Position numbers and translations under genes: made by a program. This document shows positions 3,465 to 64,000 of a stretch of 64,000 bases of DNA, one piece after another. Within the stretch, counting starts at the first letter, position 1. Each line of letters opens with the position of its first letter. Under the pieces are notes generated by a model. It was not told where the DNA came from. It was given only the letters and a program-made list of their open reading frames with translations, and made no database searches. The stretch is from an uncultured Verrucomicrobia subdivision 3 bacterium (GTDB taxonomy: Bacteria > Verrucomicrobiota > Verrucomicrobiia > Limisphaerales > UBA11358). The stretch spans positions 11,009-75,008 of the forward strand of contig CAJAQO010000286.1 in NCBI GenBank assembly GCA_903944085.1. Reading direction: 5' to 3'.

Positions 3465-3544
3465 TCTTAATCCTAAGCGTCATCGTAATCTTAATCTGCT
3501 TCAAACCACGATTACGATTAAGAACAAGATTAAGATTAGGATTG
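3465..3544. repeat. inverted pair of short TAATC-type / GATTA-type tandem units (no cargo)
   Basis: Left arm: tcttaatcctaagcg ... cgtaatcttaatct (3465-3497). Right arm: cgattacgattaaga ... agattaagattagg (3509-3540). The arms are reverse complements at 13/15 and 12/14 positions. Intergenic, upstream of the nucleoside hydrolase gene. Confidence 0.7.
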
Positions 3545-3599: not shown

Positions 3600-4643
3600 A
3601 TGTCCGCGCCCGCACTCATCAACTTTTCCGCCGCGTGTTTCTCATCGTGGCGACTCGGTTTCTGTCTCGCCTTGCTCGGCATGGGCTTGGCATTCCCGCC
3701 CGCATCCGCCCGCGCCGCCGAAACCGCCGCCGTCAAGGCCGCTCCCATTCCCGTCATTCTCGACACCGACATCGGCGACGACATTGACGATACTTGGGCG
3801 CTCGCGCTCCTGCTCAAATCTCCCGAACTGGACCTGAAACTCGCGGTGGGCGATTACGGCAAAGCCGAATACCGCGCGCGTTTGCTCGCGAAGTTGCTCG
3901 CACGCTCCGGGCGCGGGGATGTGTCCGTGGGCCTCGGCCTTGATGTCGCGCCGCGCGGCGGGGGCCGGCAGGACGCGTGGGTGAAAGACTACGAACTCAA
4001 ATCCTATCCGGGCAAAGTCTTCACCAACGGAGTGCAGGCCATCATTGACACGATCATGAACTCGCCGCAGCGCGTGACCTTGATCTGCATCGGCCCGGTG
4101 CCGAACATTGCCGCCGCACTGCAACGCGAGCCGCGCATTGCCCGGCACGCGCGCTTCATCGGCATGGACGGCAGCGTGCGCCTGGGTTATGGCGGCGCGC
4201 CGTCGCCTTGCGCAGAATGGAACGTGAAGGCCGATCCGAAATCCTTGCAACAAGTTTTTGCCGCGCCTTGGGACATTACCATCACGCCGCTCGACACCTG
4301 TGGCCGGGTGAGCCTCGCCGGCGAAAAATATCGGCGCGTCCGTGACACGACCGACCGCACCGCCGCCGACGTGATCGCCAACTACCGGCTCTGGCTGGGC
4401 AGCGACCCGGCATCGTCGCCGAACGCTGCCGACCAGCACAGCAGCACCTTGTTTGATCCCGTGGCGGTTTATCTCGCCCTTCAGCCGGAGCTTTGCGTGA
4501 TGGAGCGAATGAACCTTCGCGTCACCGATGAAGGTTTTACCGTCCTGGACCCGCAGGGCAGGCCGGTCAACGTGGCGACGAAATGGAAAGACCTGGGCGC
4601 GTTCGAGGATTTTCTGGTGACCCGCCTGACGGGAAAACCTTGA
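3600..4643 (+). CDS. secreted inosine/uridine-preferring nucleoside hydrolase family protein
   Basis: Signal peptide MSAPALINFSAACFSSWRLGFCLALLGMGLAFPPASARA, then PVILDTDIGDDIDDTWALALLL, the DxDxxxDD motif of the IUNH family. The ORF is open from 3564; ATG 3600 is preferred. Confidence 0.8.
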   Translation: MSAPALINFSAACFSSWRLGFCLALLGMGLAFPPASARAAETAAVKAAPIPVILDTDIGDDIDDTWALALLLKSPELDLKLAVGDYGKAEYRARLLAKLLARSGRGDVSVGLGLDVAPRGGGRQDAWVKDYELKSYPGKVFTNGVQAIIDTIMNSPQRVTLICIGPVPNIAAALQREPRIARHARFIGMDGSVRLGYGGAPSPCAEWNVKADPKSLQQVFAAPWDITITPLDTCGRVSLAGEKYRRVRDTTDRTAADVIANYRLWLGSDPASSPNAADQHSSTLFDPVAVYLALQPELCVMERMNLRVTDEGFTVLDPQGRPVNVATKWKDLGAFEDFLVTRLTGKP

Positions 4644-4956: not shown

Positions 4957-5157
4957 CATTCTTCGCGGGGGCAAGGAAATCATGAAACCATTTGGCTTTC
5001 TCGACATTTGCCATGGGCGACAGGGAAGTTGTCGCGCCGCGACAAAGAATCCGTGTTTCATCCGTGGCTAAAAACAATTGGTCACCCCGTCCTGCTCCCA
5101 GCCGCCAGGCGCGGGGATGCAAAAACGCCGATTTTTGATGGATGTATATGTTTTTTG

Positions 5158-5500
5158 GACAAAGCCGTTGTTTCGGCAGGCCACTCCGGTGATTTTTTAG
5201 GCTACTCCGTTGCTGCGGATGGCCACTCCGGTAAATTTTTTGACCACTCCGTTGTCGCCGACGACCACTCCGGTGATTTTTCAGCCTGCTCCGGGGAAAT
5301 TTTAGTCCGCTCCATTGTCGCGGATCATCACTCCGGTGAAATTTAAGGCTGCGCCGTTGATTTTGAACGTCGCGCTGTTGCCGCCGATGGTCACTCCCTT
5401 GATTTTGAAGTCCACTCCGTTGATTCCGAAGCCCACTCCGTTGCCGCAAGTGCTTACTCCGTAGCTTCAGAAGGTCACGCCGTTGGCTTGGACGCCCGCA
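5158..5500. repeat. degenerate tandem array of about 16 units of about 21 nt (20-22 nt variants)
   Basis: Units share the core CACTCCGKT, e.g. gccactccggtgattttttag / gctactccgttgctgcggatg / gccactccggtaaattttttga / ccactccgttgtcgccgacga ... gtcacgccgttggcttggac. On the minus strand they read as heptads of the form x-N-G-V-x-F-x, interrupted by stops and frameshifts. Confidence 0.75.
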
Positions 5501-10600: not shown

Positions 10601-10668
10601 ATTTACGATATGCGATTTGCGATTTACGAGCCTTAAATCAGCCGGCGCGTAAATCGTAAATCGAAAAT
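10601..10668. repeat. cargo-less inverted heptamer arrays (ATTTRCG)x4 / (CGTAAAT)x3
   Basis: Left arm: atttacg atatgcg atttgcg atttacg (10601-10628). A 19-nt spacer follows. Right arm: cgtaaat cgtaaat cgaaaat (10648-10668). This fills most of the gap between the TPR-gene stop and the hisI start. Confidence 0.85.
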
Positions 10669-10677
10669 GGTAATCCA

Positions 10678-15507: not shown

Positions 15508-15732
15508 GCGCCGTTTTGCGGTGAATAACTCAATGGGTGCAACAGTCGGAAACCTTGATTTTACAAGTGAATCTGAATTATTCATCCGTTGCTCACCGCG
15601 CATTTTTGGTGGATAAGTTGTGCATATCAAATCGTAGGCAAAAACAGGAACTATGATATGATGTTTTCAGTTCATTGAAAGAACGAAGCGGGCAGTGGAA
15701 AGTAAAATTGACGCTGTTCGTTTCAAGATAAT

Positions 15733-16541
15733 CCCAGGCGACTGGGGAAAAGTCAGGTCAGGCTGGTTGATCTGGCTCCTCAAAAACCGGAGCGCAAGTT
15801 TCGGCGAGGCAGAATTCACCAGTTCCTCTGGCGGTGTTCGCACACCGTCACATGCGAATGAGGGACTTGGCGGCGAGGAACGATGAGAAGCCGTTCCAAA
15901 CCGAGTCAAGTATTTCAGGAAAGTTTCGATCCTGAATGAATCGCAGTCACCCAGAGGGTGAACGGTTGCTACTGTGTATCAGCACGGACGGATGACTCTG
16001 GCGGGTTCAAAAATAAAAAGTTGGGACCGCCAAAAGAAAGACGCTGAAAGGCGGGACAAAGGGAGCATTCGAACCGGGAAGACCACGACGGCCAGGCAAG
16101 CCGCGTGAAAAACTTCCGAGCGCCGGCGATGTTAAAAACGACACCGCTGGACTGTGAGATAAAATGCAACTTGAGAGAGCAGAGGCGAGACCCGTGGTTT
16201 TGGGCGAACGCACCGCCAAAAGCGGTGGCTGACCCGGAGCCAGTGGTCAAGACGCGAACAAAAAAATCGCAGGCGTGTCTTGACCTGGTTCGCAGGCCGG
16301 TGGCGCAACCACCAGCCGAAGCGAGCTGAAAAGCCTCACTCAAAATTCGCGCGGCGCAAGCCGCCGGACGGCCCTGCTACGAGGCCGACAACTCCGCTTG
16401 CCGTGGAGAATGGCGTCGGGAAACCAGCAGCCGCTGAAAAGCGTGCGCCAAATGCTGGCACGGGAAAGAGAGCTTGGCGAACTCCCATCCCCCATTTGTC
16501 CCGGTCTGACCGCAAGGTTGGACCGGGACTTATTGTTTTCA
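15733..16541 (+). ncRNA. candidate large structured RNA (family not recognised); boundaries approximate
   Basis: ORF-poor 1.3-kb gap between convergent hisS and acnA. On the + strand there are at least 11 local hairpins, five capped by GNRA or GNRA-like loops: GCGA 15738-41, GCAA 15794-97, CGCAA 16304-08, GCAA 16356-59, GCAA 16512-15. The last is a 14-bp stem followed by a T-rich tail (16499-16541). No covariation evidence is available. Confidence 0.3.
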
Positions 16542-27084: not shown

Positions 27085-27112
27085 CGTAAATCGTAAATCG
27101 TAAATCGCAAAT
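27085..27112. repeat. solo heptamer array (CGTAAAT)x3 + CGCAAAT
   Basis: cgtaaat cgtaaat cgtaaat cgcaaat. The last unit supplies the A and T of the acpS ATG (27111). Same unit as the right arm at 10648-10668. Confidence 0.85.
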
Positions 27113-35133: not shown

Positions 35134-36555
35134 CTAATTGCCCAGCAGCTGCTCGCCAAGCCTCAAAAGTTTCTGCACGGCGGCATCCGATGTCGCCTCG
35201 GCGTAAATGCGCAGCACCGGCTCGGTGCCGGAGCCGCGCAGCATCAGCCACGTCGAATCGGCCGCGACAAATTTCACGCCGTCGCGCGCGTCCACTTTCG
35301 CCAGCGGCGAGCGGAGGAGTTTTTTGGGCGGATTGCTTTTCAGGCGTTCCATGAGCGCGGCGCGTTTTTCCAGCGGATAGTGCGCGTCGAAGCGGGCATA
35401 ACGATGCGGACCAAATTCCTTTTCCAGGCACGCATAAATTTTGTTCACGGAAATTTTTTCCATGGCCAGCATTTCGAGCAGGAACAAGCCGGCCGCCAGC
35501 CCGTCGCGTTCGGGAATGTGATTCGCAAAGCCGACCGAGCCGCTTTCTTCCGCGCCGAACAGCGCGCCGGGCTTCATCAGCTCCGGCGCGATGAAGCGGA
35601 AGCCGATGCCGACTTCCGTGAGCGGCAGATTCCACGCGGCGCACATCTTGTCCACCATCGCGGTAGTATTAAAAGTCTTTGTCACCACGCCGCGATCGCC
35701 GCGATTGCGCACGAGATGATGCAGCAACAGCGCGATGACCTGCTGGTTGGTCAGCGGGCCACCGCGACCGTCCATCGCGCCGATGCGGTCGGAATCGCCG
35801 TCAGTCACGAGGCAAATGTCGTGCGGATTGCGCCGCAACTGCGCGCCACCAAGCGCGTAATTTTTCGGCAACGGTTCCGGGCAGATGCCGCCGAACAGAA
35901 TGTCATGCGCGCCGTTGAGCGTCGTGACGTGGCAAGAAGTTTTGGCGAGCAGCGTTTCAAAGACGCCCGCGCCGACACCAAACAAGGCATCATGCGCCAC
36001 GCGCAATTTTGATTGCGCGATCAACTTGAAATCCACGAGCCGCTTGATGGCGGCGAAGTGCGCGGGGCGGACGTCCAAATTGGCGATTGGCGATTGGCGA
36101 TTGACGATTGATTTGGGAGCGGTTGCGTCCAGAAGTTTTTCCACGGCCTGACATTCTTCCGCGCTGCTGCTGCCGCCGAAATGCGACTTGAGTTTGAAGC
36201 CGTTGAAAATCGGCGGATTATGGCTGGCCGTAATCATCACGCCGCCGACGGCGCCAAGATTTTTTACCGCATAGGAAATGGATGGCGTCGGCGTCGGTTC
36301 CGGCGTGAGCACGACCTTAAAATCATTGCCGGCAAAAACCTCGGCGGTGAGTTGCGCGAAACGGTCGGACAAAAAACGCCGGTCGTAGCCGATGACCACC
36401 TTTGGCTCGCGCCCGAAAATTTCCGATTTCCGATTTCCGATTTCCGATTTCCAAAAATCCGCCGTCGCCTGCGCCACGCGCGCGACGTTGGCAAAAGTAA
36501 AATCTTCCGCGATAACCGCGCGCCAGCCGTCGGTGCCGAATTTGATTTGAGTCAC
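35134..36555 (-). CDS. alpha-D-phosphohexomutase (phosphoglucomutase/phosphomannomutase)
   Basis: FGTDGWRA, ITASHNPPIFNGFK (catalytic Ser loop), VTDGDSDR (Mg site) and GEESG. Carries two translated heptamer arrays (see repeats 36079 and 36421). Confidence 0.85.
   Translation of the reverse strand: MTQIKFGTDGWRAVIAEDFTFANVARVAQATADFWKSEIGNRKSEIFGREPKVVIGYDRRFLSDRFAQLTAEVFAGNDFKVVLTPEPTPTPSISYAVKNLGAVGGVMITASHNPPIFNGFKLKSHFGGSSSAEECQAVEKLLDATAPKSIVNRQSPIANLDVRPAHFAAIKRLVDFKLIAQSKLRVAHDALFGVGAGVFETLLAKTSCHVTTLNGAHDILFGGICPEPLPKNYALGGAQLRRNPHDICLVTDGDSDRIGAMDGRGGPLTNQQVIALLLHHLVRNRGDRGVVTKTFNTTAMVDKMCAAWNLPLTEVGIGFRFIAPELMKPGALFGAEESGSVGFANHIPERDGLAAGLFLLEMLAMEKISVNKIYACLEKEFGPHRYARFDAHYPLEKRAALMERLKSNPPKKLLRSPLAKVDARDGVKFVAADSTWLMLRGSGTEPVLRIYAEATSDAAVQKLLRLGEQLLGN
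36079..36113. repeat. in-frame heptamer array (ATTGGCG)x3 plus 2 degenerate units inside the phosphohexomutase CDS
   Basis: attggcg attggcg attggcg attgacg attgatt, translated on the minus strand as SIVNRQSPIANLD. Confidence 0.85.
36421..36455. repeat. in-frame heptamer array (TTCCGAT)x4 plus 1 degenerate unit inside the phosphohexomutase CDS
   Basis: ttccgat x4 then ttccaaa, translated on the minus strand as WKSEIGNRKSEIF. Confidence 0.85.
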
Positions 36556-44427: not shown

Positions 44428-45144
44428 TTGATTGTTTTCACGCGCGCCGCCGCTTTAATTGTCAGGTCTGTGGCTGAACCCATCGTCAAAATCCGCGAGC
44501 TGACCAAGCTGTATTCCCAAGGCGAAATCCAAGTGACCGCGCTCGACCGCATCACGCTCGACATCGCCGCCGGGGAATTCCTCGCGCTCATGGGACCGTC
44601 CGGCTCCGGCAAATCCACGCTGTTGCACATCATCGCCGGCGTGGACCGCCCGACCAGCGGCCAATGTCTTGTGCAAGGTGTGGATGTGACCAAGCTGAAC
44701 GAATCGGCACTCGCCGACTGGCGCAACCACAATGTCGGCTTCATTTTTCAAACCTTCAATTTGATTCCCGTTTTGACCGCTGCCGAAAATGTGGAACTGC
44801 CGCTGCTGCTCACGCGGTTGAGCCGGACGCAACGTCGCAAGCAAGTTGAAACCGCGCTCGAAGTCGTCGGCCTCGCTGACCGCGCGAAACATTTGCCGCG
44901 CCAGCTTTCCGGCGGACAGGAACAGCGCGTGGCCATCGCCCGCGCGCTCGTGACCGACCCGGCGCTCATCGTCGCCGACGAGCCGACCGGCAATCTCGAT
45001 TCGCACAGCGCGCAAGAAGTTCTTGGAGCGTTGCAATCGCTCCGCAAGGACGCCGGCAAAACCATCATCATGGTCACGCACGATCCGAAAGCGGCGGCGT
45101 TCGGCACGCGGCAAATCCATTTGGAGAAAGGCGAGCTGTCTTGA
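44428..45144 (+). CDS. ABC transporter ATP-binding protein (MacB/LolD type)
   Basis: [11 protein letters not shown] (Walker A), [15 protein letters not shown] and [11 protein letters not shown] (Walker B). Exact start uncertain. Confidence 0.88.
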
Positions 45145-45145
45145 T

Positions 45146-45563
45146 TTCCAATTTTCAATTGCCAATCGCCAATTTGAAATTATGAACGCCGAAGAGATGA
45201 AATTGCGCACGAAAAAATTCGCGCTGCGAATCATGAAGCTGGCGGATTCTTTGCCACGCTCGCCATCGGGTCGAACGTTGGCTGGACAAATTGTGCGGTC
45301 CGGAACTTCTGTAGCGGCCAATTACCGAGCGGCGGGCAAAGGTCGTTCCAAGGCTGAATTCATCGCCAAACTGGGCATTGCCGAGGAAGAAGCCGATGAA
45401 ACTCAATTTTGGCTGGAGTTGATTATCGAGTCTGGAGTGGTGAAAGAAAATTTGATCCAGCCATTATTGCAAGAAGCCCGCGAGTTGACCGCCATCATTG
45501 CCGCCTCGCGGAAATCAACCGCGCAGAATAAATAAATTGGCAATTGGCGATTGAAAATTGGAA
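45146..45563 (+). mobile_element. 418-bp cassette: four-helix-bundle gene bounded by inverted heptamer arrays, inserted at the ATPase/permease junction
   Basis: Left array: ttccaat tttcaat tgccaat cgccaat ttgaaat (45146-45180). Right array: attggca attggcg attgaaa attggaa (45536-45563). The reverse complement of the right array matches the left at 26/28 positions. No transposase is present. Confidence 0.45.
45182..45535 (+). CDS. four-helix-bundle protein (23S rRNA intervening-sequence protein family, TIGR02436/PF05635-like)
   Basis: MNAEEMKLRTKKFALRIMKLADSLP ... GQIVRSGTSVAANYRAAGKGRSKAEFIAKLGIAEEEADETQFWLELI carries the family signature GTS..ANY.EA ... S..(D/E)F..K...A.KEA.ET..WL. Confidence 0.85.
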   Translation: MNAEEMKLRTKKFALRIMKLADSLPRSPSGRTLAGQIVRSGTSVAANYRAAGKGRSKAEFIAKLGIAEEEADETQFWLELIIESGVVKENLIQPLLQEARELTAIIAASRKSTAQNK

Positions 45564-45572
45564 ATACCCGAG

Positions 45573-53168: not shown

Positions 53169-56100
53169 ATGTCTCCGGTCACCGGCGAACGCCTCGTGCG
53201 CTTCATCGGCGACAAAATCCTTTTCTCCATCAACGCCGGCAGGAATTTCGCCGCGCCGAAAAACTGGCGCGCGCGACTCCGCACCAATCTCGGCCGCGCC
53301 GCCGCCCGCCGCCAAGAAATCATCTCCGCCCATGCCGGCCGGGCGGTGGTCGCCAATTCCTCCTGGCGGGACGTGCCGATGCAACCAACCGCCGAAGGCT
53401 GGGCCATTGAGCTGCCGCTCGCGGAAGTCGGCTACTTTCAGGCCAAGGCTTACCTGCTCGACGAAAAAAACTGGCAGCACTGGCCCGATGGCGCGGACGC
53501 CGGCATTTCGGTGCATCCGAATTTTGCCCGGACGGCGAACACCCTTTACTGCGCCTTCACCCGGCTTTTCGGGGCGACCAAAAATCTCGCGGCCACCGCC
53601 GATGAAAAATTGGATACGCAGTTGAAATCGCTGGAAGCGCAAGGCTACGCCACGCTGCCGCCGTCGGGCAAATTCCGCGACCTCACGCGGCAGTTGCCCT
53701 TCATCGTCAACCAACTCGGCTGCCGGATCATTCATCTCTTGCCGGTGCATCCGACGCCCACGACCTACGCGCGCTTCGGTCGTTTCGGCAGTCCTTACGC
53801 CGCGCTGGATTTGACGGCGGTTGATCCCGCGCTCGTCGAATTCGACCAATGCACCACCGGTATTGACCAGTTTTGCGAACTAACTTACGCGGCACATTCG
53901 CTCGGCGCGCGCGTGTTCATTGATATCGTCATCAACCACACCGGCTGGGGTTCGAGCTTGCAGGAAAATCACCCGGAGTTTTTCCTGAAAAATCCCGACG
54001 GCTCATTCGCCAGTCCCGGCGCGTGGGGCACGGTCTGGGAAGATTTGGTGGAACTCGAACAGCACAGCGTCAAACTTTGGGATCTCATCGCCGACTCGCT
54101 GCTCGTCTGGTGCCGGCGCGGCGTGGATGGTTTTCGCTGCGACGCCGGCTACAAAATTCCCGCGCCCGCCTGGCAATACATCGTCGCCCGCGTGCAGGAG
54201 GAATTTCCCGAAACCATTTTTCTGCTCGAAGGTCTTGGCGGCTCGTGGGACGCGACGGAACTTTTGCTAACCGAAGGCGGGATGCAATGGGCGTATTCCG
54301 AATTGTTCCAAAATTATTCCGGCAAAGAGGTCGCGTGGTATCTCGACTACGCCAGCCGGCAAAATGAACGCGTCGGCAGCTACGTGAATTATTCCGAAAC
54401 GCACGATAACGACCGTCTCGCGAAAAAAGGCCGCGCCTGGTCGCTCCTGCGAAATCGGCTGTGCGCGCTGACCAGTCCGAGCGGCGGTTTCGGTTTCACC
54501 TGCGGCGTGGAATGGCTGGCGACGGAAAAAATAAAAGTCCACGGCAACACCGGCCTGAACTGGGACGCCGCCGAAAACATCGTGCCCGAACTCGCGCAGC
54601 TCAACCAGCTCGTCGCCGATCATCCATGCTTTTTCGACGGCGCAAGACTCACGCGCCTGAGTGCGCCCGATTCACCAGTTTACGCGCTGCTCCGCGAATC
54701 CGCCGAAGGCAAGGATTTCGTTTTAATTTTGGTCAACACGGAGCTGGAAAATCCAAACGCGCTGACGCTCGAAGTTTCCGCTTTCCACTTTCCGCTTTCC
54801 GCTTTTGCGTTTGATTTGCTCGGCCAGCCGCTCCCGAAAATTTCCGCCACCAAAAACGAAATCGCGTTCACACTTCCGCCGGGCGCAGTCTTCTGCCTCG
54901 CGCCGACCGAGAAACCTGCCGGTTTGAGCGGCGATAATTACCGCCGTGTCCGCGCGCAAGCCGCCTGGGCCTTGGAATCATTGAATAAAATCGTTGCCGC
55001 CGAAACCATTGACGGCCTCGACTGGCTGTGGCTCGCGGCGCAGGTTGAATCGTCGCCGAAAAATTTTCTCGCCGCTGCCAGCGAATTCGCCGCGCGCGAA
55101 GCCAAAACTTCGCTCGCCGATTTGTTGGCTGAAGTCAGCGCCGGAAAGGTTTTTCCCCGCGTGGTCGAATGGACATTGCTGGATGCCCGCCGCGTCACGC
55201 TCGTGCCGCCCGGTCATTGGCTGCTGATTGAAGATTCCGCGCCGTTCCGGGCCGAATTGCGAAGTCAGAAGCCAGAAGTCAGAAGTCAGAATGAAACTGC
55301 GGTCACGTGCCACATCCAGTCCATCGCCGTCGGCGACCGGCACATCGCAACATTTGCGCCGCGCGATACAACGGCCGAATCCAATTTAATTGTGGAACGC
55401 TACGCGACCACTTCGCCAAAAGTTTCCGCCGCCATTCGTTTTCTTTCCGCCAATCCGCAATCCGCAATCCGCAATCCGCAATCCGGCGACCTGGTTTTAT
55501 TGACGAATGGTATCGGCGGCATGGCGCGGCTGTGCGTGGACCTGGGCCGCATAAATTCCAAATACGACTGCGCGCTCGGCGCAAATCTGAATCCCGCCGT
55601 GCCGGTGGACCGCCACGTTTTGGTGAAGCGAATCCGCGCCTGGGTGAATGCGGACGGTTTTCTGTCGCCGTTGGATTTCAAAAATCTCGCGTCGTTCCAG
55701 CCCGGCTCGCCGGCCGTCTGGAATTTTGTGGCGAACGCCGGCGACGGCCGCACGGTGGAAATTGAACTGCGCGCGGAAATGCTCGACGGCAAAAACACCA
55801 CCGTTTTTTACTTTCGCCGGCCCACGGAAAAACTCGCACAGGGAAAACAGTTGCCTGCCGACGCCGATGTGCGCTTGACCGTGCGCGTGGACATCGAAGA
55901 CCGGAATTTTCACAGCGAAACCAAACGCAACAGCGGCGCGGATTTCCATTTCGCGTCGAATTGCCATCCGATTGGTAGCAGCCGACGTGAGGAGGCTCAT
56001 TCTAAAAAGGCGCAAGGCGGAAGGCAGAAGGCGGAAATTAATTTGAGCCTCGTCACCTCGGCTGCTACAGAATTATTAACGGGCTTCATCTTCACGCCCG

Positions 56101-57587
56101 CCCCTGACCGCCAGTTGCGCGTCTTTGCCGACGCCGGCGAATATCATCCGCAGCCAGAGTGGTGCGAAAACATTCCGCATCCGGTCGAGCAGACGCGCGG
56201 CCAAACCGGCAGCGGCGATGCCTACAGCCCCGGCTGGTTTGAAATTCCGCTCGCAAAAGGCACCGAGGCAACGCTGGTGCTGACGGCGGAAACGGAGCAA
56301 AGCAAAAGCGGAAAGCGGAAAGCGGAAAGCGGAAAGGCAGAAGCCAATTTTGAAGCGCAACTTGCACGCGCGGCGAAACAATTCGTCGTGCGCCGCGATG
56401 AGGGCAAAACGGTCATCGCCGGCTACCCGTGGTTTCTCGACTGGGGTCGCGATTCGCTGATTTGTGCGCGCGGGCTTTTAGCCGCCGGCATGGTTGACGA
56501 GGTGAGGCAGCTTTTGCTCACGTTCGCCAAATTTGAAAAAGACGGCACGCTGCCCAACACGATTCACGGCAACGACGTTTCCAACCGCGACACGTCGGAT
56601 GCACCGCTGTGGTTCGCGGTCGTGTGCGAAGAAATTTCCAAGATTAAAAATCCGAAATTAAAAACCAAAGATTTTTACGCGACGCTGGTGGATGAAAATG
56701 GCCGCACCCTCCGCGACGTGCTCGCGAGCATCGCCGAAAACTACGCCAAAGGCACGCCGAACGGCATCCGCATGGACGCCGATTCCGCGCTCATCTGGAG
56801 TCCGAGCCATTTCACCTGGATGGACACGAATTTTCCCGCCGGCACGCCGCGCGAAGGTTATCCCGTCGAAATTCAAGTGCTGTGGATTCGCCTGCTGCGG
56901 CTGCTGGCAACTATTTCCGCCAAGACCGATCAAAAGAAATGGCAGGATCTCGCCGAACACGCGCTGGCCTCGTTTGAAAAACTTTTCTGGCTCGAAAATA
57001 AAGGCTGGTTTGCCGACGTGTTGATCGCCAAATCAAATGTCATCGCGCGCGACGCCGCGGCGAGCGATGCATTGCGCAGCAATTGTCTTTTCGCCGTCAG
57101 CCTCGGCCTCGTCACCGGCGAACGCGCGAAACGCTGCGTCGCGGCGGCGCAAAAATATCTCGTCGTGCCGGGCGCGCTGCGCTCGCTCGCACCGCTGCCG
57201 GTGGCCGTGCCGCTGCCGATTTTCAGCAACGACGGACGGCTGATCAACAATCCGCCGGAGCCGTATTGGCCGCGTTACGAAGGCGATGAGGACACGCGCC
57301 GCAAGCCCGCGTATCACAACGGCACGGCGTGGACGTGGACGTTTCCCAGCTTTTGTGAGGCGATCGTGCGTGCATGGGATTTTTCGCCGGCAGCCGTGGT
57401 GGCGGCAAAAGCGCATTTAGTCAGCGCGGAAAAAATTCTGAATGAAGGCTGCCTCGGACAAATCCCGGAAATTCTCGACGGCGACGCGCCGCACACGCAG
57501 CGCGGCTGCGATGCGCAGGCGTGGGGTGTGACCGAAACGCTACGCGTGTGGAAAATGTTGAATTCGCACGCTGCGCAGGCAAAATGA
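53169..57587 (+). CDS. bifunctional-looking GH13 alpha-amylase-family domain + glycogen-debranching amylo-alpha-1,6-glucosidase (GDE_N/GDE_C) fusion
   Basis: GH13 regions: FIDIVINHTG, DGFRCDAGYK, FLLEGLG and YSETHDND. The central part LLTNGIGGMARL ... DRHVLV is GDE_N-like. The C-terminal part is GYPWFLDWGRDSLICARGLL ... YHNGTAWTWTFPSF ... CDAQAWG (GDE_C). The ORF is open from 53004; ATG 53169 is preferred. It contains five translated repeat insertions. Confidence 0.8.
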   Translation: MSPVTGERLVRFIGDKILFSINAGRNFAAPKNWRARLRTNLGRAAARRQEIISAHAGRAVVANSSWRDVPMQPTAEGWAIELPLAEVGYFQAKAYLLDEKNWQHWPDGADAGISVHPNFARTANTLYCAFTRLFGATKNLAATADEKLDTQLKSLEAQGYATLPPSGKFRDLTRQLPFIVNQLGCRIIHLLPVHPTPTTYARFGRFGSPYAALDLTAVDPALVEFDQCTTGIDQFCELTYAAHSLGARVFIDIVINHTGWGSSLQENHPEFFLKNPDGSFASPGAWGTVWEDLVELEQHSVKLWDLIADSLLVWCRRGVDGFRCDAGYKIPAPAWQYIVARVQEEFPETIFLLEGLGGSWDATELLLTEGGMQWAYSELFQNYSGKEVAWYLDYASRQNERVGSYVNYSETHDNDRLAKKGRAWSLLRNRLCALTSPSGGFGFTCGVEWLATEKIKVHGNTGLNWDAAENIVPELAQLNQLVADHPCFFDGARLTRLSAPDSPVYALLRESAEGKDFVLILVNTELENPNALTLEVSAFHFPLSAFAFDLLGQPLPKISATKNEIAFTLPPGAVFCLAPTEKPAGLSGDNYRRVRAQAAWALESLNKIVAAETIDGLDWLWLAAQVESSPKNFLAAASEFAAREAKTSLADLLAEVSAGKVFPRVVEWTLLDARRVTLVPPGHWLLIEDSAPFRAELRSQKPEVRSQNETAVTCHIQSIAVGDRHIATFAPRDTTAESNLIVERYATTSPKVSAAIRFLSANPQSAIRNPQSGDLVLLTNGIGGMARLCVDLGRINSKYDCALGANLNPAVPVDRHVLVKRIRAWVNADGFLSPLDFKNLASFQPGSPAVWNFVANAGDGRTVEIELRAEMLDGKNTTVFYFRRPTEKLAQGKQLPADADVRLTVRVDIEDRNFHSETKRNSGADFHFASNCHPIGSSRREEAHSKKAQGGRQKAEINLSLVTSAATELLTGFIFTPAPDRQLRVFADAGEYHPQPEWCENIPHPVEQTRGQTGSGDAYSPGWFEIPLAKGTEATLVLTAETEQSKSGKRKAESGKAEANFEAQLARAAKQFVVRRDEGKTVIAGYPWFLDWGRDSLICARGLLAAGMVDEVRQLLLTFAKFEKDGTLPNTIHGNDVSNRDTSDAPLWFAVVCEEISKIKNPKLKTKDFYATLVDENGRTLRDVLASIAENYAKGTPNGIRMDADSALIWSPSHFTWMDTNFPAGTPREGYPVEIQVLWIRLLRLLATISAKTDQKKWQDLAEHALASFEKLFWLENKGWFADVLIAKSNVIARDAAASDALRSNCLFAVSLGLVTGERAKRCVAAAQKYLVVPGALRSLAPLPVAVPLPIFSNDGRLINNPPEPYWPRYEGDEDTRRKPAYHNGTAWTWTFPSFCEAIVRAWDFSPAAVVAAKAHLVSAEKILNEGCLGQIPEILDGDAPHTQRGCDAQAWGVTETLRVWKMLNSHAAQAK
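54775..54816. repeat. in-frame heptamer array (TTTCCGC-type, 6 units)
   Basis: tttccgc tttccac tttccgc tttccgc ttttgcg tttgatt, translated as VSAFHFPLSAFAFD. Confidence 0.85.
55261..55295. repeat. in-frame heptamer array (GAAGTCA-type, 5 units)
   Basis: gaagtca gaagcca gaagtca gaagtca gaatgaa, translated as RSQKPEVRSQNE. Confidence 0.85.
55451..55485. repeat. in-frame heptamer array (CAATCCG)x5
   Basis: Five perfect copies of caatccg, translated as ANPQSAIRNPQSG. Confidence 0.9.
55975..56068. repeat. 94-nt in-frame palindromic element: 25-nt terminal inverted repeats around an (AAGGCGG)x4 array
   Basis: The left arm gtagcagccgacgtgaggaggctca (55975-55999) and the right arm tgagcctcgtcacctcggctgctac (56044-56068) are complementary at 23/25 positions. 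Inside lies aaggcgc aaggcgg aaggcag aaggcgg (56007-56034). Translated as SSRREEAHSKKAQGGRQKAEINLSLVTSAAT. Confidence 0.85.
56305..56339. repeat. in-frame heptamer array (AAAGCGG)x4 plus degenerate unit
   Basis: aaagcgg x4 then aaaggca, translated as KSGKRKAESGKA. Confidence 0.9.
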
Positions 57588-59865: not shown

Positions 59866-60405
59866 TTATTTGTTCGTTTGGGCCAAGATAATGTCAGCCG
59901 CCTCGCCCAGATTGCGAGCGGAAAAATCAGGTTTCTGCTTCAACTCCTCGGCATACCCACGATCAATAAAAATTGTTTTACAGTCCGCCGCATGGCCGCA
60001 ATCCACATCGCGCCAGCGGTCGCCGACCATCCAGCTTTGCGCGAGATCAATGCCAAGTTCACGCGCGGCGCGCAGCAACATGCCGGGTTTGGGTTTGCGG
60101 CAATCGCAGTCGGACAAACCTTTGCCGGCGTGAAAACAAACTTCGACGCGATCAATCGGCAGTTGCGCCAGCATGTGCGCGTGAATTTTTTCGACGACTT
60201 CCTGCTTCAATGTGCCACGGCCGACATCCGGCTGGTTCGTGGCCACCACCAATAAAAATCCGGCGGCTTTCAGTTTGGCACACGCGGCGGGAACTTCGGG
60301 AAGAATTTCAAATTCGGCGAGGCTCGTCGGCGGATATGGCTTGGATTCCTTTTCCAACGCACGATTAATCACACCATCGCGATCGAGAAAAACCGCGCGA
60401 CGCAT
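59866..60405 (-). CDS. gmhB: D-glycero-D-manno-heptose 1,7-bisphosphate phosphatase (HAD-IIIA)
   Basis: MRRAVFLDRDGVIN, VVATNQPDVGRG, CDCRKPKPGML and MVGDRWRDVDCG. The track ORF extends to 60570 through the repeat and into gmhA; ATG 60405 is preferred. Confidence 0.85.
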   Translation of the reverse strand: MRRAVFLDRDGVINRALEKESKPYPPTSLAEFEILPEVPAACAKLKAAGFLLVVATNQPDVGRGTLKQEVVEKIHAHMLAQLPIDRVEVCFHAGKGLSDCDCRKPKPGMLLRAARELGIDLAQSWMVGDRWRDVDCGHAADCKTIFIDRGYAEELKQKPDFSARNLGEAADIILAQTNK

Positions 60406-60434
60406 TTCCGCTTTCCGCTTTCCGCTTTCCGCTT
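60405..60434. repeat. solo heptamer array (TTTCCGC)x4 filling the whole gmhA-gmhB spacer
   Basis: The coding strand reads TAA-aa-gcggaaa-gcggaaa-gcggaaa-gcggaaA-TG. The array runs from the gmhA stop directly into the gmhB ATG. Confidence 0.9.
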
Positions 60435-61031
60435 TTACTTCGTGCTTTCCCATTTGGTCTGGGCAACTTTCAATTTCGGATGCGACACGAACAAATGCCA
60501 GATGACGCCTTGAAACGCCTCGCTGTGCGGCGTGACGTGCGTGGGATTCACCGTCGGGACGATTACGCACGCGGTCGCCTGCTGCGCCGTGTAACCGCCA
60601 TCGCGGCCGACGATGCCGACCACCGAGGCCCCGACCGATTTGGCCACCTGAATCGCGCTGACGAGATTGGGGCTGACATTTTTTTCAAGGTTGCCGCCGC
60701 CAACCGAAAAAATCAGGAGTCCGTCCTGCGCATTGATGCGACTGCCCTTCAACCATTCGGAAAAAACCGTCGCCCAGCCTTCGTCATTCGTGCGCGCCGT
60801 GAGTTCGGAAACATTGTCCGTGGGCGCGTAAGCCTCAAAGCCGCAGATTTTGCGGAAATCATTCACCGCATGGCCGGCGTTGCCTGCGCTGCCGCCCACG
60901 CCGAGGATGAACAGCCGTCCGCCGCGCGCGCGGATGGCGGCCAGTTCGTCCGCGCATTTTTCAATGGCCGCTTCGTCGAGTTGGGCCGTGATCTGCTGCG
61001 CTTCGGCGAGAAATTGTCTGGTAAAACTCAT
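60435..61031 (-). CDS. gmhA: SIS-domain sedoheptulose-7-phosphate isomerase
   Basis: RLFILGVGGSAGNAGHAVNDF ... LLIFSVGGG ... VVGIVGRDGG; context with gmhB, hddA and hddC. Confidence 0.8.
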   Translation of the reverse strand: MSFTRQFLAEAQQITAQLDEAAIEKCADELAAIRARGGRLFILGVGGSAGNAGHAVNDFRKICGFEAYAPTDNVSELTARTNDEGWATVFSEWLKGSRINAQDGLLIFSVGGGNLEKNVSPNLVSAIQVAKSVGASVVGIVGRDGGYTAQQATACVIVPTVNPTHVTPHSEAFQGVIWHLFVSHPKLKVAQTKWESTK

Positions 61032-61787: not shown

Positions 61788-62764
61788 GAGATCACCAGTT
61801 TCGTGCCCTCGAAATCAAATCGGAAGCGCACTTCCTTCAAACCGCTTTGGCGCATCGCGTGACGCAGCTTCGCCTTGGCTTCCGCGTAAAACATCAGGAA
61901 GCCGCCACCGCCCGCGCCGATGAGCTTGCCGCCGAGCGCGCCGTTGGCCAGCGCGAGGTCATACCATTCGTTAATTTTCGGATTGCTCATGCCGCCGCTG
62001 CGCTGTTTTTTGCGCTGCCAGTGGACATCCATCAGCCGCGCGAATTCGTGCAGATTGCCCGATTCCAGCGCGGCTTTGCTTTGCAGACCGAGATCCTTGA
62101 CGAAGTGCAAATTCTCAATCATGGACTTGTCGTCCGCTTTGGATTTGGTGTCCTGTTCCTTCAGAATCGCCGAGGCGCTGCGCGAATAGCCGGTGAAAAA
62201 CAACAGCAGATTATCTTCCAGATTGTCGCGCGTCTCATCGGAAACTTTCAGCGGCCACGCCTCCACTTTTCCGCCTGGCAAAAAGTTGAAGCACGTCAAA
62301 CCGCCGAACGCGGCGATGTATTGGTCCTGCTTGCCGATGGGTTCGTGCAGGCGGTTCAATTCGATGTCGCACGCTTGTTCGGCGAGTTCGGCGGGATGAA
62401 TGAGATCCTTTTTTTGCGCGTGCAAGGCTTTCAGCAACGCCGTCGTGAAACTGCCGGAAGAACCCAGACCGGTGCCGGACGGGATGTCCGCCATCGAGGT
62501 CAGCTCCAGCCCTTGCCCGTCGAGGCCAACGAGATCAAATGCCTCACGAATGATGGGATGCTCGACCTTGGCGGCGCTTTCGACCCGCTCCAGCCGCGAG
62601 TATTTGACAATCAGGTCAGGCGTGAAGTTTTCGTGCAACGTGATGTAAACGTAGCGGTCAATCGCCCCGGCGATGAGAAAGCCGCCGAACTTTTCGTAAT
62701 ACGACGGCAAATCCGTGCCGCCGCCGCCGAGCGAAATGCGCAAGGGTGAACGGGCAATGATCAT
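61784..62764 (-). CDS. hddA: GHMP-family sugar kinase (D-glycero-alpha-D-manno-heptose-7-P kinase-like)
   Basis: MIIARSPLRISLGGGGTDLPSYY ... DIPSGTGLGSSGSFT ... GKLIGAGGGGFLMF. Confidence 0.8.
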   Translation of the reverse strand: MIIARSPLRISLGGGGTDLPSYYEKFGGFLIAGAIDRYVYITLHENFTPDLIVKYSRLERVESAAKVEHPIIREAFDLVGLDGQGLELTSMADIPSGTGLGSSGSFTTALLKALHAQKKDLIHPAELAEQACDIELNRLHEPIGKQDQYIAAFGGLTCFNFLPGGKVEAWPLKVSDETRDNLEDNLLLFFTGYSRSASAILKEQDTKSKADDKSMIENLHFVKDLGLQSKAALESGNLHEFARLMDVHWQRKKQRSGGMSNPKINEWYDLALANGALGGKLIGAGGGGFLMFYAEAKAKLRHAMRQSGLKEVRFRFDFEGTKLVIS

Positions 62765-62768
62765 AAGC

Positions 62769-63220
62769 AAAAGCGGAAAGCGGAAAGCGGAAAGCGGAAA
62801 CTCCCGCGACTACGGTTAAATTTCGTTCTCATAAAATTTTCTTCGTTTTGCGGCCAATGGTAATCAAAATTGCCAGTAATTGACCAGACTCGTCCAGCAG
62901 TTCAGCGATTTGTGCTTCAGATCCAAGACCAGTATCCTGGCAAATTTCCAACCAATAAACCGTCTCGGCGGCTTCCTTTTCCGCCACACCGATTTTGTGA
63001 ACGAAATCGCTTTTGGATTCGGTGCGATTCGCTTCTCGGTAGTTTGCCCCGATTGAAGTGCCAGCCTTAAGCAATTGCCGTCCGATAATTTGTCCCTCGG
63101 CGTTTTTGGGAAAAGCCGCAACCGTTTTGACCACTTGCACGGCAAACTTTCGCGTCCGTTCTTCCAATTCGGTTCGCATACAAATTCAATTTCCGCTTTC
63201 CGCTTTCCGCTTTCCGCTTT
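62769..63220 (-). mobile_element. 452-bp cassette: four-helix-bundle gene bounded by a perfect 31-nt inverted repeat made of GCGGAAA heptamers
   Basis: aaagcggaaagcggaaagcggaaagcggaaa (62770-62800) is the exact reverse complement of tttccgctttccgctttccgctttccgcttt (63190-63220). It sits between the oxidoreductase 3' end and the hddA ATG. No transposase is present. Confidence 0.45.
62829..63179 (-). CDS. four-helix-bundle protein (23S rRNA intervening-sequence protein family)
   Basis: MRTELEERTRKFAVQVVKTVAAFP ... GRQLLKAGTSIGANYREANRTESKSDFVHKIGVAEKEAAETVYWLEI, the same signature as the 45182 gene. Confidence 0.85.
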   Translation of the reverse strand: MRTELEERTRKFAVQVVKTVAAFPKNAEGQIIGRQLLKAGTSIGANYREANRTESKSDFVHKIGVAEKEAAETVYWLEICQDTGLGSEAQIAELLDESGQLLAILITIGRKTKKIL

Positions 63221-64000
63221 GATAAATCTGTTCCACAACGCTCAAAGCTGCTTTCGCCTCCTTCAATCCCGGCACCGGACAACGTTTCAAACGGATGTCT
63301 TCAAAAAATTCCGCCATCTCAATTTTCCACGACTCGTCGCCGCGCGGGAACTCGTAAATGGTCGTTTCCGGCGGGCCCATTTGCGGCAGCATTTTGTAAT
63401 AGGTCAGCCGTTCGATGCCGTAGCTGCCGCCCAGTCCTTCCCAGTGCAATTTGGCGTCGCGCCCATAAATTTCGAGGCTGAAAAGATTTTTCCACTCGCT
63501 GCAACTGACGTGTAGCCAGGCCGTGTTGCCGTTGGCATTGCGCAGGCTTAAAAACGCGTTGTCATCCACGGGCATTTTCCAGAAATACGTTGCCGCATGG
63601 CCTTCGACCGTGGTGAACTCGCCGAGAAAAATTCCCGCGAGATCAATCAGGTGAACACCTTGATCAATTAACTCGCCGCCGCCGGAAAGCTGCGGGTCCG
63701 CGCGCCATTCCTTTTCGTAGCCGATGCGCCCGCCCTGGCCGTAGCGCCCGCGCACAAACATCATCGGGCCGAGCGCGCCGCTGCGGAAAATTTCCAGCGC
63801 CTTCAAGCCGGCCGGATGATAGCGGTGATTATAACCGACGCGGACGAGCGCGCCGGTTTTTTGCGCAGCAGTTTCCAGCGCTTCAAGTTCATTCACCGAA
63901 ATCCCCGCCGGCTTTTCCACCAGCACATGTTTGCCGTTTTTTACCGCCGCCAGCGCGATGGGCGCGAGCAGGGAATTCAGCGTGGCGATGAAAATTACTT
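63186..64000 (-). CDS. Gfo/Idh/MocA family oxidoreductase, 5' end beyond the window
   Basis: HVLVEKP (continues upstream of the track start, own translation: VIFIATLNSLLAPIALAAVKNGKHVLVEKP) plus the C-terminal alpha/beta domain. The last 10 residues, SGKRKAESGN, are encoded by the heptamer array. Confidence 0.8.
   Translation of the reverse strand, partial: VIFIATLNSLLAPIALAAVKNGKHVLVEKPAGISVNELEALETAAQKTGALVRVGYNHRYHPAGLKALEIFRSGALGPMMFVRGRYGQGGRIGYEKEWRADPQLSGGGELIDQGVHLIDLAGIFLGEFTTVEGHAATYFWKMPVDDNAFLSLRNANGNTAWLHVSCSEWKNLFSLEIYGRDAKLHWEGLGGSYGIERLTYYKMLPQMGPPETTIYEFPRGDESWKIEMAEFFEDIRLKRCPVPGLKEAKAALSVVEQIYQSGKRKAESGN

Follow-up and report, generated by a model that had tools for sequence, protein, structure and literature searches.

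How did a gene for a small four-helix-bundle (4HB) protein come to lie between two genes of a sugar-nucleotide operon, enclosed by perfect inverted arrays of a heptanucleotide? This question was raised by a 64,000-nucleotide (nt) stretch of DNA from an uncultured Verrucomicrobia subdivision 3 bacterium (assembly GCA_903944085.1, contig CAJAQO010000286.1, positions 11,009 to 75,008 of the forward strand), which is referred to here as a whole as the window, and in which the segment from 62770 to 63220 separates an oxidoreductase gene from hddA. Comparison with cassette-free relatives showed that this segment is a cassette inserted into an otherwise tight or overlapping oxidoreductase–hddA junction, and we consider it very probable that it is an inserted member of a class of mobile, array-bounded cassettes. 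The locus joins two loose ends: the S23p/4HB proteins, which were first seen in the intervening sequences (IVSs) of 23S rRNA, and the unexplained heptamer arrays of bacteria. We know of no function of 4HB proteins outside diversity-generating retroelements.

The cassette was 451 bp long with its sense strand being the window's minus strand. Its two arms, 62770–62800 (AAAGCGG × 4.4) and 63190–63220, were 31 nt each, lay 389 nt apart, and were exact reverse complements (100%). The 14-mer GCGGAAAGCGGAAA occurred 15 times in the window when one mismatch was allowed, against 0.22 occurrences expected from shuffled sequences. In the sense direction, the left end of the cassette was the proximal (5') array at 63190–63220 (AAAGCGG × 4.4 on the sense strand), which was translated as the tail of the upstream oxidoreductase, followed by a 10-nt spacer, ttgaatttgt (63180–63189), by the 4HB gene of 116 amino acids (aa) at 62829–63179, by a 28-nt 3' spacer between the 4HB stop codon and the distal array (62801–62828), and by the distal (3') array at 62770–62800 (TTTCCGC × 4.4 on the sense strand), which formed the right end. 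The 10-nt spacer was not conserved in orthologous cassettes, nor was the 28-nt spacer conserved between species. A first-pass annotation of this DNA had described a perfect 31-nt inverted heptamer repeat around a 116-aa 4HB gene, and our coordinates, the complementarity of the arms and the family scores of the protein agreed with that description. It had placed the distal array 8 nt before the hddA ATG (62762–62764), whereas the measured gap was 5 nt (tgctt).

As that annotation had also stated, the cassette lay in a co-directional gene string, with the oxidoreductase, 4HB and hddA genes all on the minus strand. The upstream gene encoded a Gfo/Idh/MocA oxidoreductase; it left the window at 64000 and was 332 aa long on longer contigs. 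Downstream of the cassette, genes for an HddA-like GHMP kinase and for HddC-like, GmhA-like and GmhB-like proteins followed on the same strand, and the genes within 6 kb on either side of the cassette belonged to a sugar-nucleotide pathway. No sigma-70-like promoter was detected for the cassette, the only sign of a terminator of its own was one weak terminator-like match on the antisense strand, below the shuffle expectation, and no known RNA family was found in it at Rfam gathering thresholds.

The 116-aa protein matched PF05635 (23S rRNA intervening sequence protein) at 77.5 bits against a cutoff of 33.8, and TIGR02436 (four helix bundle protein) with 91.8 bits against a cutoff of 24, which placed it in the 23S-IVS-protein/Avd-like family. 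Residues 6–113 matched PDB 2rld_A (E = 4e-18), the entry of which contains five chains, and the homopentameric state is known for the relatives Xcc0516 and Avd (PMC10053308). A single-sequence search returned 10,457 family clusters at 50% identity. Many of the 4HB proteins in the database (P0121–P0270) were called 30–50 residues too long at the N-terminus, probably because gene callers read through stop-free upstream arrays. The GmhB call in the window also carries, at its N-terminus, an extension encoded by an array (195 aa as compared with about 178 aa).

A scan with HddA, taking one genome per species, yielded 80 related loci, mostly from Verrucomicrobiota, and both the oxidoreductase gene and hddA could be placed in 51 of them. 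The oxidoreductase stop codon overlapped the hddA ATG or lay no more than 15 nt from it in 25 of these 51 relatives; an ATGA overlap was the commonest state of the junction and reached as far as Planctomycetota and Gammaproteobacteria. In the closest cassette-free relatives (L010 and L014) the junction measured 3 nt (...TATCAGAAGTAAATT-ATG), reading ...ATTTATCAGAAGTAAATT-ATG in L010 and ...ATTTATCAGAAGTGACTT-ATG in L014, and the oxidoreductases ended in ...IYQK. In the window, the oxidoreductase frame crossed the proximal array and continued from ...IYQ into SGKRKAESGN (codons 63218–63189), followed by the stop codon TGA (63186–63188), so that the element-derived end of the frame occupied 63186–63218 on the minus strand and the stop fell within the spacer, 6 nt ahead of the 4HB ATG. 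The native form of the C-terminus was thus ...IYQK and the cassette form ...IYQSGKRKAESGN. None of the cassette-free orthologues ended in the SGKRKAESGN tail. Since the closest empty sites end in IYQK, the tail and its stop codon are sequence of the element: the oxidoreductase gene has lost its own final codon and stop to the proximal array, and the 10-residue tail is a by-product of this. The two proposals of the first-pass annotation, that the segment had been inserted and that it supplied the last 10 residues and the stop codon of its neighbour, therefore held.

The insertion was invariant in the assemblies retrieved and was shared beyond the species. The exact 4HB protein was present on 15 contigs, and the gene order was identical in all 10 places listed. 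Both arrays were identical in the eight assemblies of the window species that we retrieved (L001–L008, including NCBI GCA_903944655.1). A cassette with the same unit occupied the oxidoreductase–hddA junction in two other species, represented by L012 and by the metagenome contig L089. In five further relatives (L015, L016, L017, L020, and L022), the oxidoreductase gene was no longer upstream, and a decayed TTTCCGC-like tract stood directly before the hddA ATG. These breaks of synteny at an array suggested that arrays may act as rearrangement points.

The window contained a second cassette of this kind on the plus strand at 45144–45565, with a unit of the ATTTCCA/ATTGGCG type and a 4HB gene running from an ATG at 45182 to a stop at 45535. 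As the first-pass annotation had it, the 4HB gene lay between inverted arms (45144–45175 and 45534–45565), which were 94% complementary; the neighbours were the genes for an ABC ATPase and for its MacB/FtsX permease, and the encoded paralogue matched TIGR02436 with 90.3 bits. An AT-rich spacer between array and ATG, which had been proposed as a common feature of the two cassettes, did not persist in the wider comparison, in that the orthologous cassettes of L012 and L089 carried unrelated G+C-rich spacers of 24–27 nt.

Scanning of metagenome contigs with an alignment of six 4HB proteins yielded 80 further loci, with 44–88% identity, on contigs of 31–65% G+C. A tandem array of at least 2.8 copies was present in 132 of the 160 flanks of these 4HB genes (82%), whereas control windows from the same contigs contained an array of at least 3 copies in 35 of 822 cases (4%). 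The period was 7 in 97 flanks (median, 4.4 copies), 9 in 26 flanks (4.3 copies), and 10 in 10 flanks (4.0 copies). The median length of the arrays increased from 31 to 40 nt as the period grew; it was the number of units, and not the length, that was conserved. In 44 of 70 loci, the upstream and downstream flanks were more complementary to each other than 95% of mismatched pairs. Purines prevailed on the sense strand of the upstream arm in 62 of 68 loci (p = 8e-13), and pyrimidines in the downstream arm in 48 of 61. From the two cassettes of the window it had been argued that a mechanism is shared rather than an end sequence, and the larger sample agreed with this: among about 80 other 4HB genes the unit varied freely, and the plan of about 4.3 units per side, inverted and with the purine-rich arm upstream, was constant. 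Two cassettes from the 'SNIEEGYGR' subfamily, a more classical one, followed the same plan (L061, with the unit GTGAAAG, and L075, with the unit GGGAGTGA). Units of 9 or 10 nt (GTGACTAAA, GTGCCTAAA, and ATGCCTAAA/ATGATCTAAA) were seen in L150, L157, L123, L147, and about 30 other metagenome flanks, likewise at about four copies per arm.

The position of the cassettes relative to neighbouring genes was also similar. A co-directional open reading frame (ORF) was found upstream in 54 of 69 loci, ending 0–20 nt before the proximal array in 26, inside the array in 20, and beyond it in 8. Rewriting of the C-terminus of a neighbour therefore recurred, in a minority of cassettes only. A co-directional ORF was found downstream in 35 of 63 loci and started at a median of 11 nt after the distal array.

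Evidence that the cassettes move as units came from a group with GGCTGAA or GGCTAAA units, the 4HB proteins of which were 83–88% identical. These cassettes lay in at least four unrelated contexts, next to a PBP2 gene, a NuoL/M-like gene, a Fic gene, and an Amidase_3/GH35 pair. When the four loci were aligned, the outer edges of the two arrays, proximal and distal, were the exact limits of homology, and the sequences outside were unrelated. The confinement of homology between array edges at unrelated loci showed the arrays to be, by this alignment, the ends of the moving unit. GCGGAAA-type cassettes were also found elsewhere: in reverse orientation at the hddC–gmhA junction (L025/L098), and beyond the heptose operon in L091 and L094; in L090 the GCGGAAA unit was present in the downstream arm only. 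In other lineages, junctions of the same heptose operon carried independent, divergent cassettes with different units, at gmhA–gmhB (L018), hddA–hddC (L086), hddC–gmhA (L075), and oxidoreductase–hddA (L061). The 4HB family thus appears to travel as array-bounded cassettes and to be statistically tied to heptamer arrays. No excision footprint of the cassette was seen.

The arrays of the orthologous cassettes were more constant than the genes around and between them. At fourfold degenerate sites, the oxidoreductase and hddA genes of the window differed from those of L012 by 34–41%, and the divergence reached 56–64% in the 4HB gene between the three species. The proximal array, however, was identical in L012 and had one mismatch in L089, and a 33-nt stretch including the distal array was identical in all three species, between which the spacers inside the cassette were unalignable. 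This constancy implies either selection on the exact unit or continual homogenisation. The 4HB proteins of the three species were 79–88% identical despite the 56–64% divergence at fourfold sites of the gene, which shows purifying selection on the protein. Between more distant relatives, whole arrays switched unit in concert and kept their spacing. The 32-nt spacer between gmhA and gmhB was of the GCGGAAA type in the window species and L010 and of the GTCCGAA type in L020 and L024, and arrays at fixed positions inside the glycogen-debranching-enzyme (GDE) gene encoded FPLSAFR in some orthologues and FKFQISN in others. Protein identity fell as the distance between units grew (Spearman −0.34; none of 2000 Mantel permutations reached this value). 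Of 34 arrays elsewhere on the cassette-bearing contigs, 13 shared the unit of the cassette, against 1.3 expected. The density of period-7 arrays outside cassettes was 20 per 100 kb on contigs with 4HB genes, 17 in the window, and 3 in hddA loci without a 4HB gene. Common descent, or the taxonomy and repertoire of the host, confounds all three of these comparisons.

Arrays also occurred without a 4HB gene, and it is from these that a first alternative draws its strength, namely that the arrays came first. Slippage or a host process would make arrays and hairpins at gene junctions, and a 4HB gene would later have landed in a hairpin or been captured by it, so that the arrays would not belong to a 4HB element as its ends. 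Solo arrays and ORF-less hairpins were indeed common at the same operon junctions: in relatives, the junctions contained solo arrays of about 32 nt and array–loop–array hairpins of 80–340 nt. In the window, a solo array with the GCGGAAA unit (AAAGCGG × 4.4 on the sense, minus strand; 60405–60435) filled the 32-nt junction between gmhA and gmhB and touched the gmhB ATG, and was also present in L010. An ORF-less hairpin of the ATTTACG type at 10603–10673, with 30-nt arms of 83% complementarity and an 11-nt loop, lay between a TPR-protein gene and hisI (PRA-CH), and a solo CGTAAAT array at 27085–27112 abutted the start of the holo-ACP synthase gene (acpS). Arrays were found inside genes as well. 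The 1527-aa GDE gene on the plus strand contained five, all translated, among them a TTTCCGC array with one variant unit (54775–54805), two further in-frame heptamer arrays (55261–55291 and 55446–55485), and an AAAGCGG × 4.6 array encoding the peptide KSGKRKAESGK (56305–56336); two in-frame arrays in the PGM/PMM gene on the minus strand (36079–36110 and 36419–36452) were translated as an insert of 8 + 2 residues relative to PDB 1tuo. Moreover, tandem heptamers have been reported as the most abundant intergenic periodic repeat across prokaryotes, with a function that is not known (10.1101/309039).

The junction under study also supplied support for the arrays-first explanation, in that L025 carried an ORF-less GCGGAAA-type hairpin between the oxidoreductase gene and hddA. 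The first-pass annotation had regarded inverted arrays at this junction without a 4HB gene, and with no evidence of loss, as incompatible with its proposal; the L025 hairpin, which may be either a remnant or a precursor, bears on that condition. A search for 4HB remnants in ORF-less hairpin loops, in spacers of 61–340 nt, gave none, the loops being too short to be informative; it did bring to light the two divergent cassettes in L061 and L075. The arrays-first explanation was opposed by the presence of arrays on 82% of 4HB flanks as compared with 4% of control windows, by the GGCTGAA family, in which cassettes at unrelated loci were homologous from array edge to array edge so that the unit travelled with the gene, and by the strict polarity of the arrays relative to the ORF. 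We regard this explanation as improbable.

Several array features lay beside this comparison. In-frame arrays contributed peptides of about 10–11 residues with a 7-residue period, such as KSEIGNRKSEIF and KSGKRKAESGK, and at some in-frame positions all orthologues carried an array with differing units. The 307-nt hddA–hddC spacer of L045 contained three array pairs of three units nested in the form A B C ... C' B' A', as if each new pair had been inserted into the middle of the hairpin before it. In L001, just past the right end of the window, a further TTTCCGC array (4070–4097) separated two more genes of this operon, those for an epimerase and a short-chain dehydrogenase. The same-unit arrays of the operon alternated in orientation (Y ... 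R-[4HB]-Y ... R), and any purine-type array in the operon transcript could pair with any pyrimidine-type one.

If a cassette was inserted, its 4HB gene may have been mere cargo, and the second alternative is a non-autonomous DNA transposon with hairpin-forming ends used by a transposase encoded elsewhere (for example, a hairpin-specific HUH/Y1 enzyme), in the manner of repetitive extragenic palindromes (REPs) or of MITEs (miniature inverted-repeat transposable elements). The ends of the cassette are terminal inverted repeats, copies were found at unrelated loci with sharp common boundaries, presence and absence varied between orthologous sites, the same repeats were dispersed singly and in pairs, and the hairpins of L045 were nested, all of which would be expected of such an element. 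MITEs and small elements derived from insertion sequences also resemble the cassette in being small and in lying at junctions or in frame. They differ in that the cassette showed no target-site duplication, either between filled and empty junctions or in the four-locus alignment of the GGCTGAA family; in that the number of units and not the sequence of the ends was conserved; and in that the cargo was always of the same protein family and covaried with the unit. The only ORF of the cassette was the 4HB gene, and the classified genes near arrays and cassettes, to which the check for transposases in the window was confined, had ordinary roles in metabolism or transport.

The REPs with their bacterial interspersed mosaic elements and REP-associated tyrosine transposases (RAYTs) likewise place a gene between inverted short repeats and disperse the same repeat, solo and in hairpin pairs, at gene junctions. 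However, a RAYT is an HUH/Y1 transposase, whereas the cassette gene encodes a 116-aa helical bundle with no recognised catalytic fold, and REP ends are a conserved palindrome, whereas those of the cassette are tandem arrays of variable sequence. Membership of the REP/RAYT class was rejected because the cassette gene matched PF05635/TIGR02436 only and not HUH/Y1. An integron gene cassette was rejected on account of the two symmetric tandem-repeat ends, the single copy in a housekeeping operon, and the lack of an integrase gene nearby. We judge that a borrowed transposase is an unlikely explanation of the cassette.

In a third alternative the cassette is not a selfish element. It would be a host regulatory module that controls the operon post-transcriptionally, through translational operators at start codons or through mRNA processing and stability, and its patchy distribution would reflect regulatory turnover. 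The abutment of arrays on start codons is consistent with this, as seen in the solo array that touches the gmhB ATG and in the median gap of 11 nt downstream of cassettes, as are the strong conservation of the arrays and the finding that the heptamer arrays of Xanthomonas are transcribed and positionally conserved (PMC4692102). On the other hand, near-identical cassettes were present in functionally unrelated operons, the same heptose operon was cassette-free in most relatives, and a regulatory role is hard to picture for in-frame arrays inside enzymes; we consider a regulatory module quite improbable. A phase-variable locus, in which slippage toggles the oxidoreductase tail or the expression of hddA, is hardly credible. 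In its favour, the repeats are perfect and tandem, the length of the unit is not divisible by 3, and one array overlaps a reading frame and the other lies in a 5' leader. Against it, the copy number was identical in eight independent assemblies, essentially identical in three species, and tightly centred on 4.3–4.4 family-wide, so that a slippage-driven contingency locus was ruled out.

The insertion of a mobile cassette thus remained the reading to be compared with known systems, the closest of which is the IVS of 23S rRNA. In Coxiella burnetii and Leptospira, as here, an S23p/PF05635 ORF is enclosed in a terminal-repeat stem of about 28–31 bp, and these IVSs have long been suspected to be mobile or selfish, by a mechanism that is not known. 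The IVS of Coxiella has a 28-bp terminal stem that is cut by RNase III; 3–4 tandem heptamers (GACAGAT) stand just 5' of the S23p ORF, and cleavage falls where the first of them begins (PMC4990558). The cassette differs in lying between protein-coding genes of an mRNA operon, whereas IVSs lie in helix 25 or 45 of 23S rRNA; Rfam gave no rRNA context in the window or at 20 other cassette loci. It also differs in having a stem that consists wholly of perfect heptamer arrays, in rewriting the C-terminus of a neighbouring protein, and in that RNase III processing is predicted here rather than observed. Because it is not in rRNA, the cassette is outside the strict 23S IVS class, yet it shares the other anatomical features of that class.

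Avd of diversity-generating retroelements belongs to a homologous 4HB family and forms a homopentamer (PMC10053308). A diversity-generating retroelement, or a remnant of one, was rejected, as there was no reverse transcriptase, template repeat or variable repeat beside the 4HB gene. Avd acts on nucleic acid together with a reverse transcriptase.

The arrays themselves correspond to heptamer arrays described in several bacteria. In Geobacter metallireducens, 'four tandem heptanucleotide repeats' (Gmet_H4xx) occur at 49 sites, both between and inside genes (PMC2700814); the GGGAATC arrays of Xanthomonas mostly have four units and form 70 convergent pairs (PMC4692102); and the TAACTGA repeats of Beggiatoaceae abut start codons (PMC4679880). 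Like the arrays of the window, those of cyanobacteria, Beggiatoaceae, Xanthomonas, and Geobacter have a 7-nt unit in mostly about four copies, are intergenic or intragenic, often stand at a start codon, occur singly or in convergent pairs, and are conserved in position, and the solo, hairpin, and intragenic arrays of the window conformed to the published description. Unlike them, two arrays here form the ends of a gene cassette, and many units coexist in one genome. In the literature that we searched, the coverage of which was incomplete (full text, and the supplements of the Beggiatoaceae and Geobacter studies), we found no link between PF05635 genes and flanking inverted arrays other than the heptamers of the Coxiella IVS, nor a description of a general mobile cassette architecture.

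From these comparisons a sequence of events can be proposed. Given the absence of a detectable promoter or terminator and the sense orientation inside the operon, the cassette is probably transcribed along with its host operon. In the transcript the two arrays would pair to form a 31–33-bp stem that closes off the 4HB frame, as in the 23S rRNA IVS; in the minimum-free-energy fold the ORF was enclosed by a 33-bp stem (−167.8 kcal/mol, z = −3.8). RNase III needs roughly 20 bp, and the stem of the cassette is far longer. Because the stem has the same geometry as that of the IVS, the terminal stem of which is cut by RNase III, a cut would be expected here too, and it would uncouple the messages of the oxidoreductase and hddA, which are translationally coupled at empty sites, and release the 4HB message. 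In our judgement there is an even chance that the stem serves as an RNase III processing site. Since translation of the oxidoreductase runs on across the proximal arm and its stop codon lies 6 nt ahead of the 4HB ATG, ribosomes crossing this arm would open the stem and could couple translation of the 4HB gene to that of the upstream gene.

A further and weaker step concerns the protein. As its relatives are homopentameric and the arrays contain about 4.3 units whatever the length of the unit, we suppose that a pentameric 4HB protein may recognise the units of its own arrays, with one subunit per unit and each paralogue specific for its own unit; such a homopentamer would bind about 4–5 array units in RNA or DNA. 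Recognition of this kind would fix the identity and number of the units and would tie the cassette to nearby ORF-less arrays of the same unit. The array–gene–inverted array arrangement would then be the autonomous form, from which solo arrays, ORF-less hairpins, and in-frame arrays would descend as non-autonomous derivatives, or which would use them as targets. A partnership between 4HB proteins and arrays would explain the conserved number of units, the identity of units across species at 34–64% silent divergence, and the concerted switches of unit. That the 4HB protein is a specific partner of the arrays is nevertheless a tentative and rather doubtful proposal. As a combined explanation, an inserted cassette of a widespread class that is co-transcribed, forms a stem, is cut by RNase III, and has its units recognised by its protein is one that we favour with moderate confidence.

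A number of observations weigh against this explanation. No transposase, integrase, or reverse transcriptase was found in or next to the cassette among the classified genes, and, as noted above, no target-site duplication was seen between filled and empty junctions or in the GGCTGAA four-locus alignment. Arrays without a 4HB gene far outnumbered cassettes; the window contained about 15 period-7 arrays, of 3.7–5.6 copies each and of at least 8 units, and two 4HB genes. To these must be added the ORF-less hairpin of L025 at the very same junction. Neither an empty-site variant nor a copy-number variant was found within the species in the eight retrieved assemblies. The single-gene hddA tree was star-like, with cassette-bearing and empty lineages interleaved, and did not discriminate between a single gain and repeated gains or losses. 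Joint descent and the repertoire of the host confound the covariation of protein and unit. Mismatches gave no significant sign of pairing in the sense RNA (75 of the G.U type and 58 of the A.C type, p = 0.17), and the stem might therefore act in DNA. Finally, cleavage by RNase III and binding of the arrays by the protein are predicted steps.

The reading of the cassette as an inserted mobile unit has consequences in three directions. As inverted arrays generally enclose 4HB genes and move with them, the partnership of protein and repeat becomes a testable hypothesis, and if that hypothesis were true the 23S IVS proteins would acquire a function after 30 years without one; the PF05635 4HB proteins could conceivably be the partners that have been missing for the heptamer arrays scattered through many bacterial genomes, a suggestion that we make with reserve. 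Something counts units and not base pairs, and the movement of the cassettes is possibly a new way of gene movement. For genome annotation, cassettes rewrite the C-termini of neighbours, stop-free arrays lengthen called ORFs, and in-frame arrays add inserts of 10–11 residues to enzymes.

Other small repeats were present in the window. A second small palindromic element lay in frame in the GDE gene on the plus strand (55975–56068), with 25-nt arms (GTAGCAGCCGACGTGAGGAGGCTCA/TGAGCCTCGTCACCTCGGCTGCTAC) of 92% complementarity and with a heptamer array, AAGGCGG (56007–56036), in its loop. The 27-residue insert that it encodes was missing in most GDE orthologues, and its arms recurred as the gmhA–gmhB spacer in L009 and L015. 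Two adjacent hexamer arrays, TCTTAA × 5.5 and GATTAA × 5.7, occupied 3465–3497 and 3510–3543 in a divergent intergenic region, and a 42-nt × 3.4 repeat and a 21-nt × 2.5 repeat were found at 5151–5293 and 5392–5443. The sole Rfam match in the window at the gathering threshold was a MISL RNA (RF03079, a 751-nt model) at 15726–16485 on the plus strand, which was full-length and scored 606 bits (E = 1e-183).

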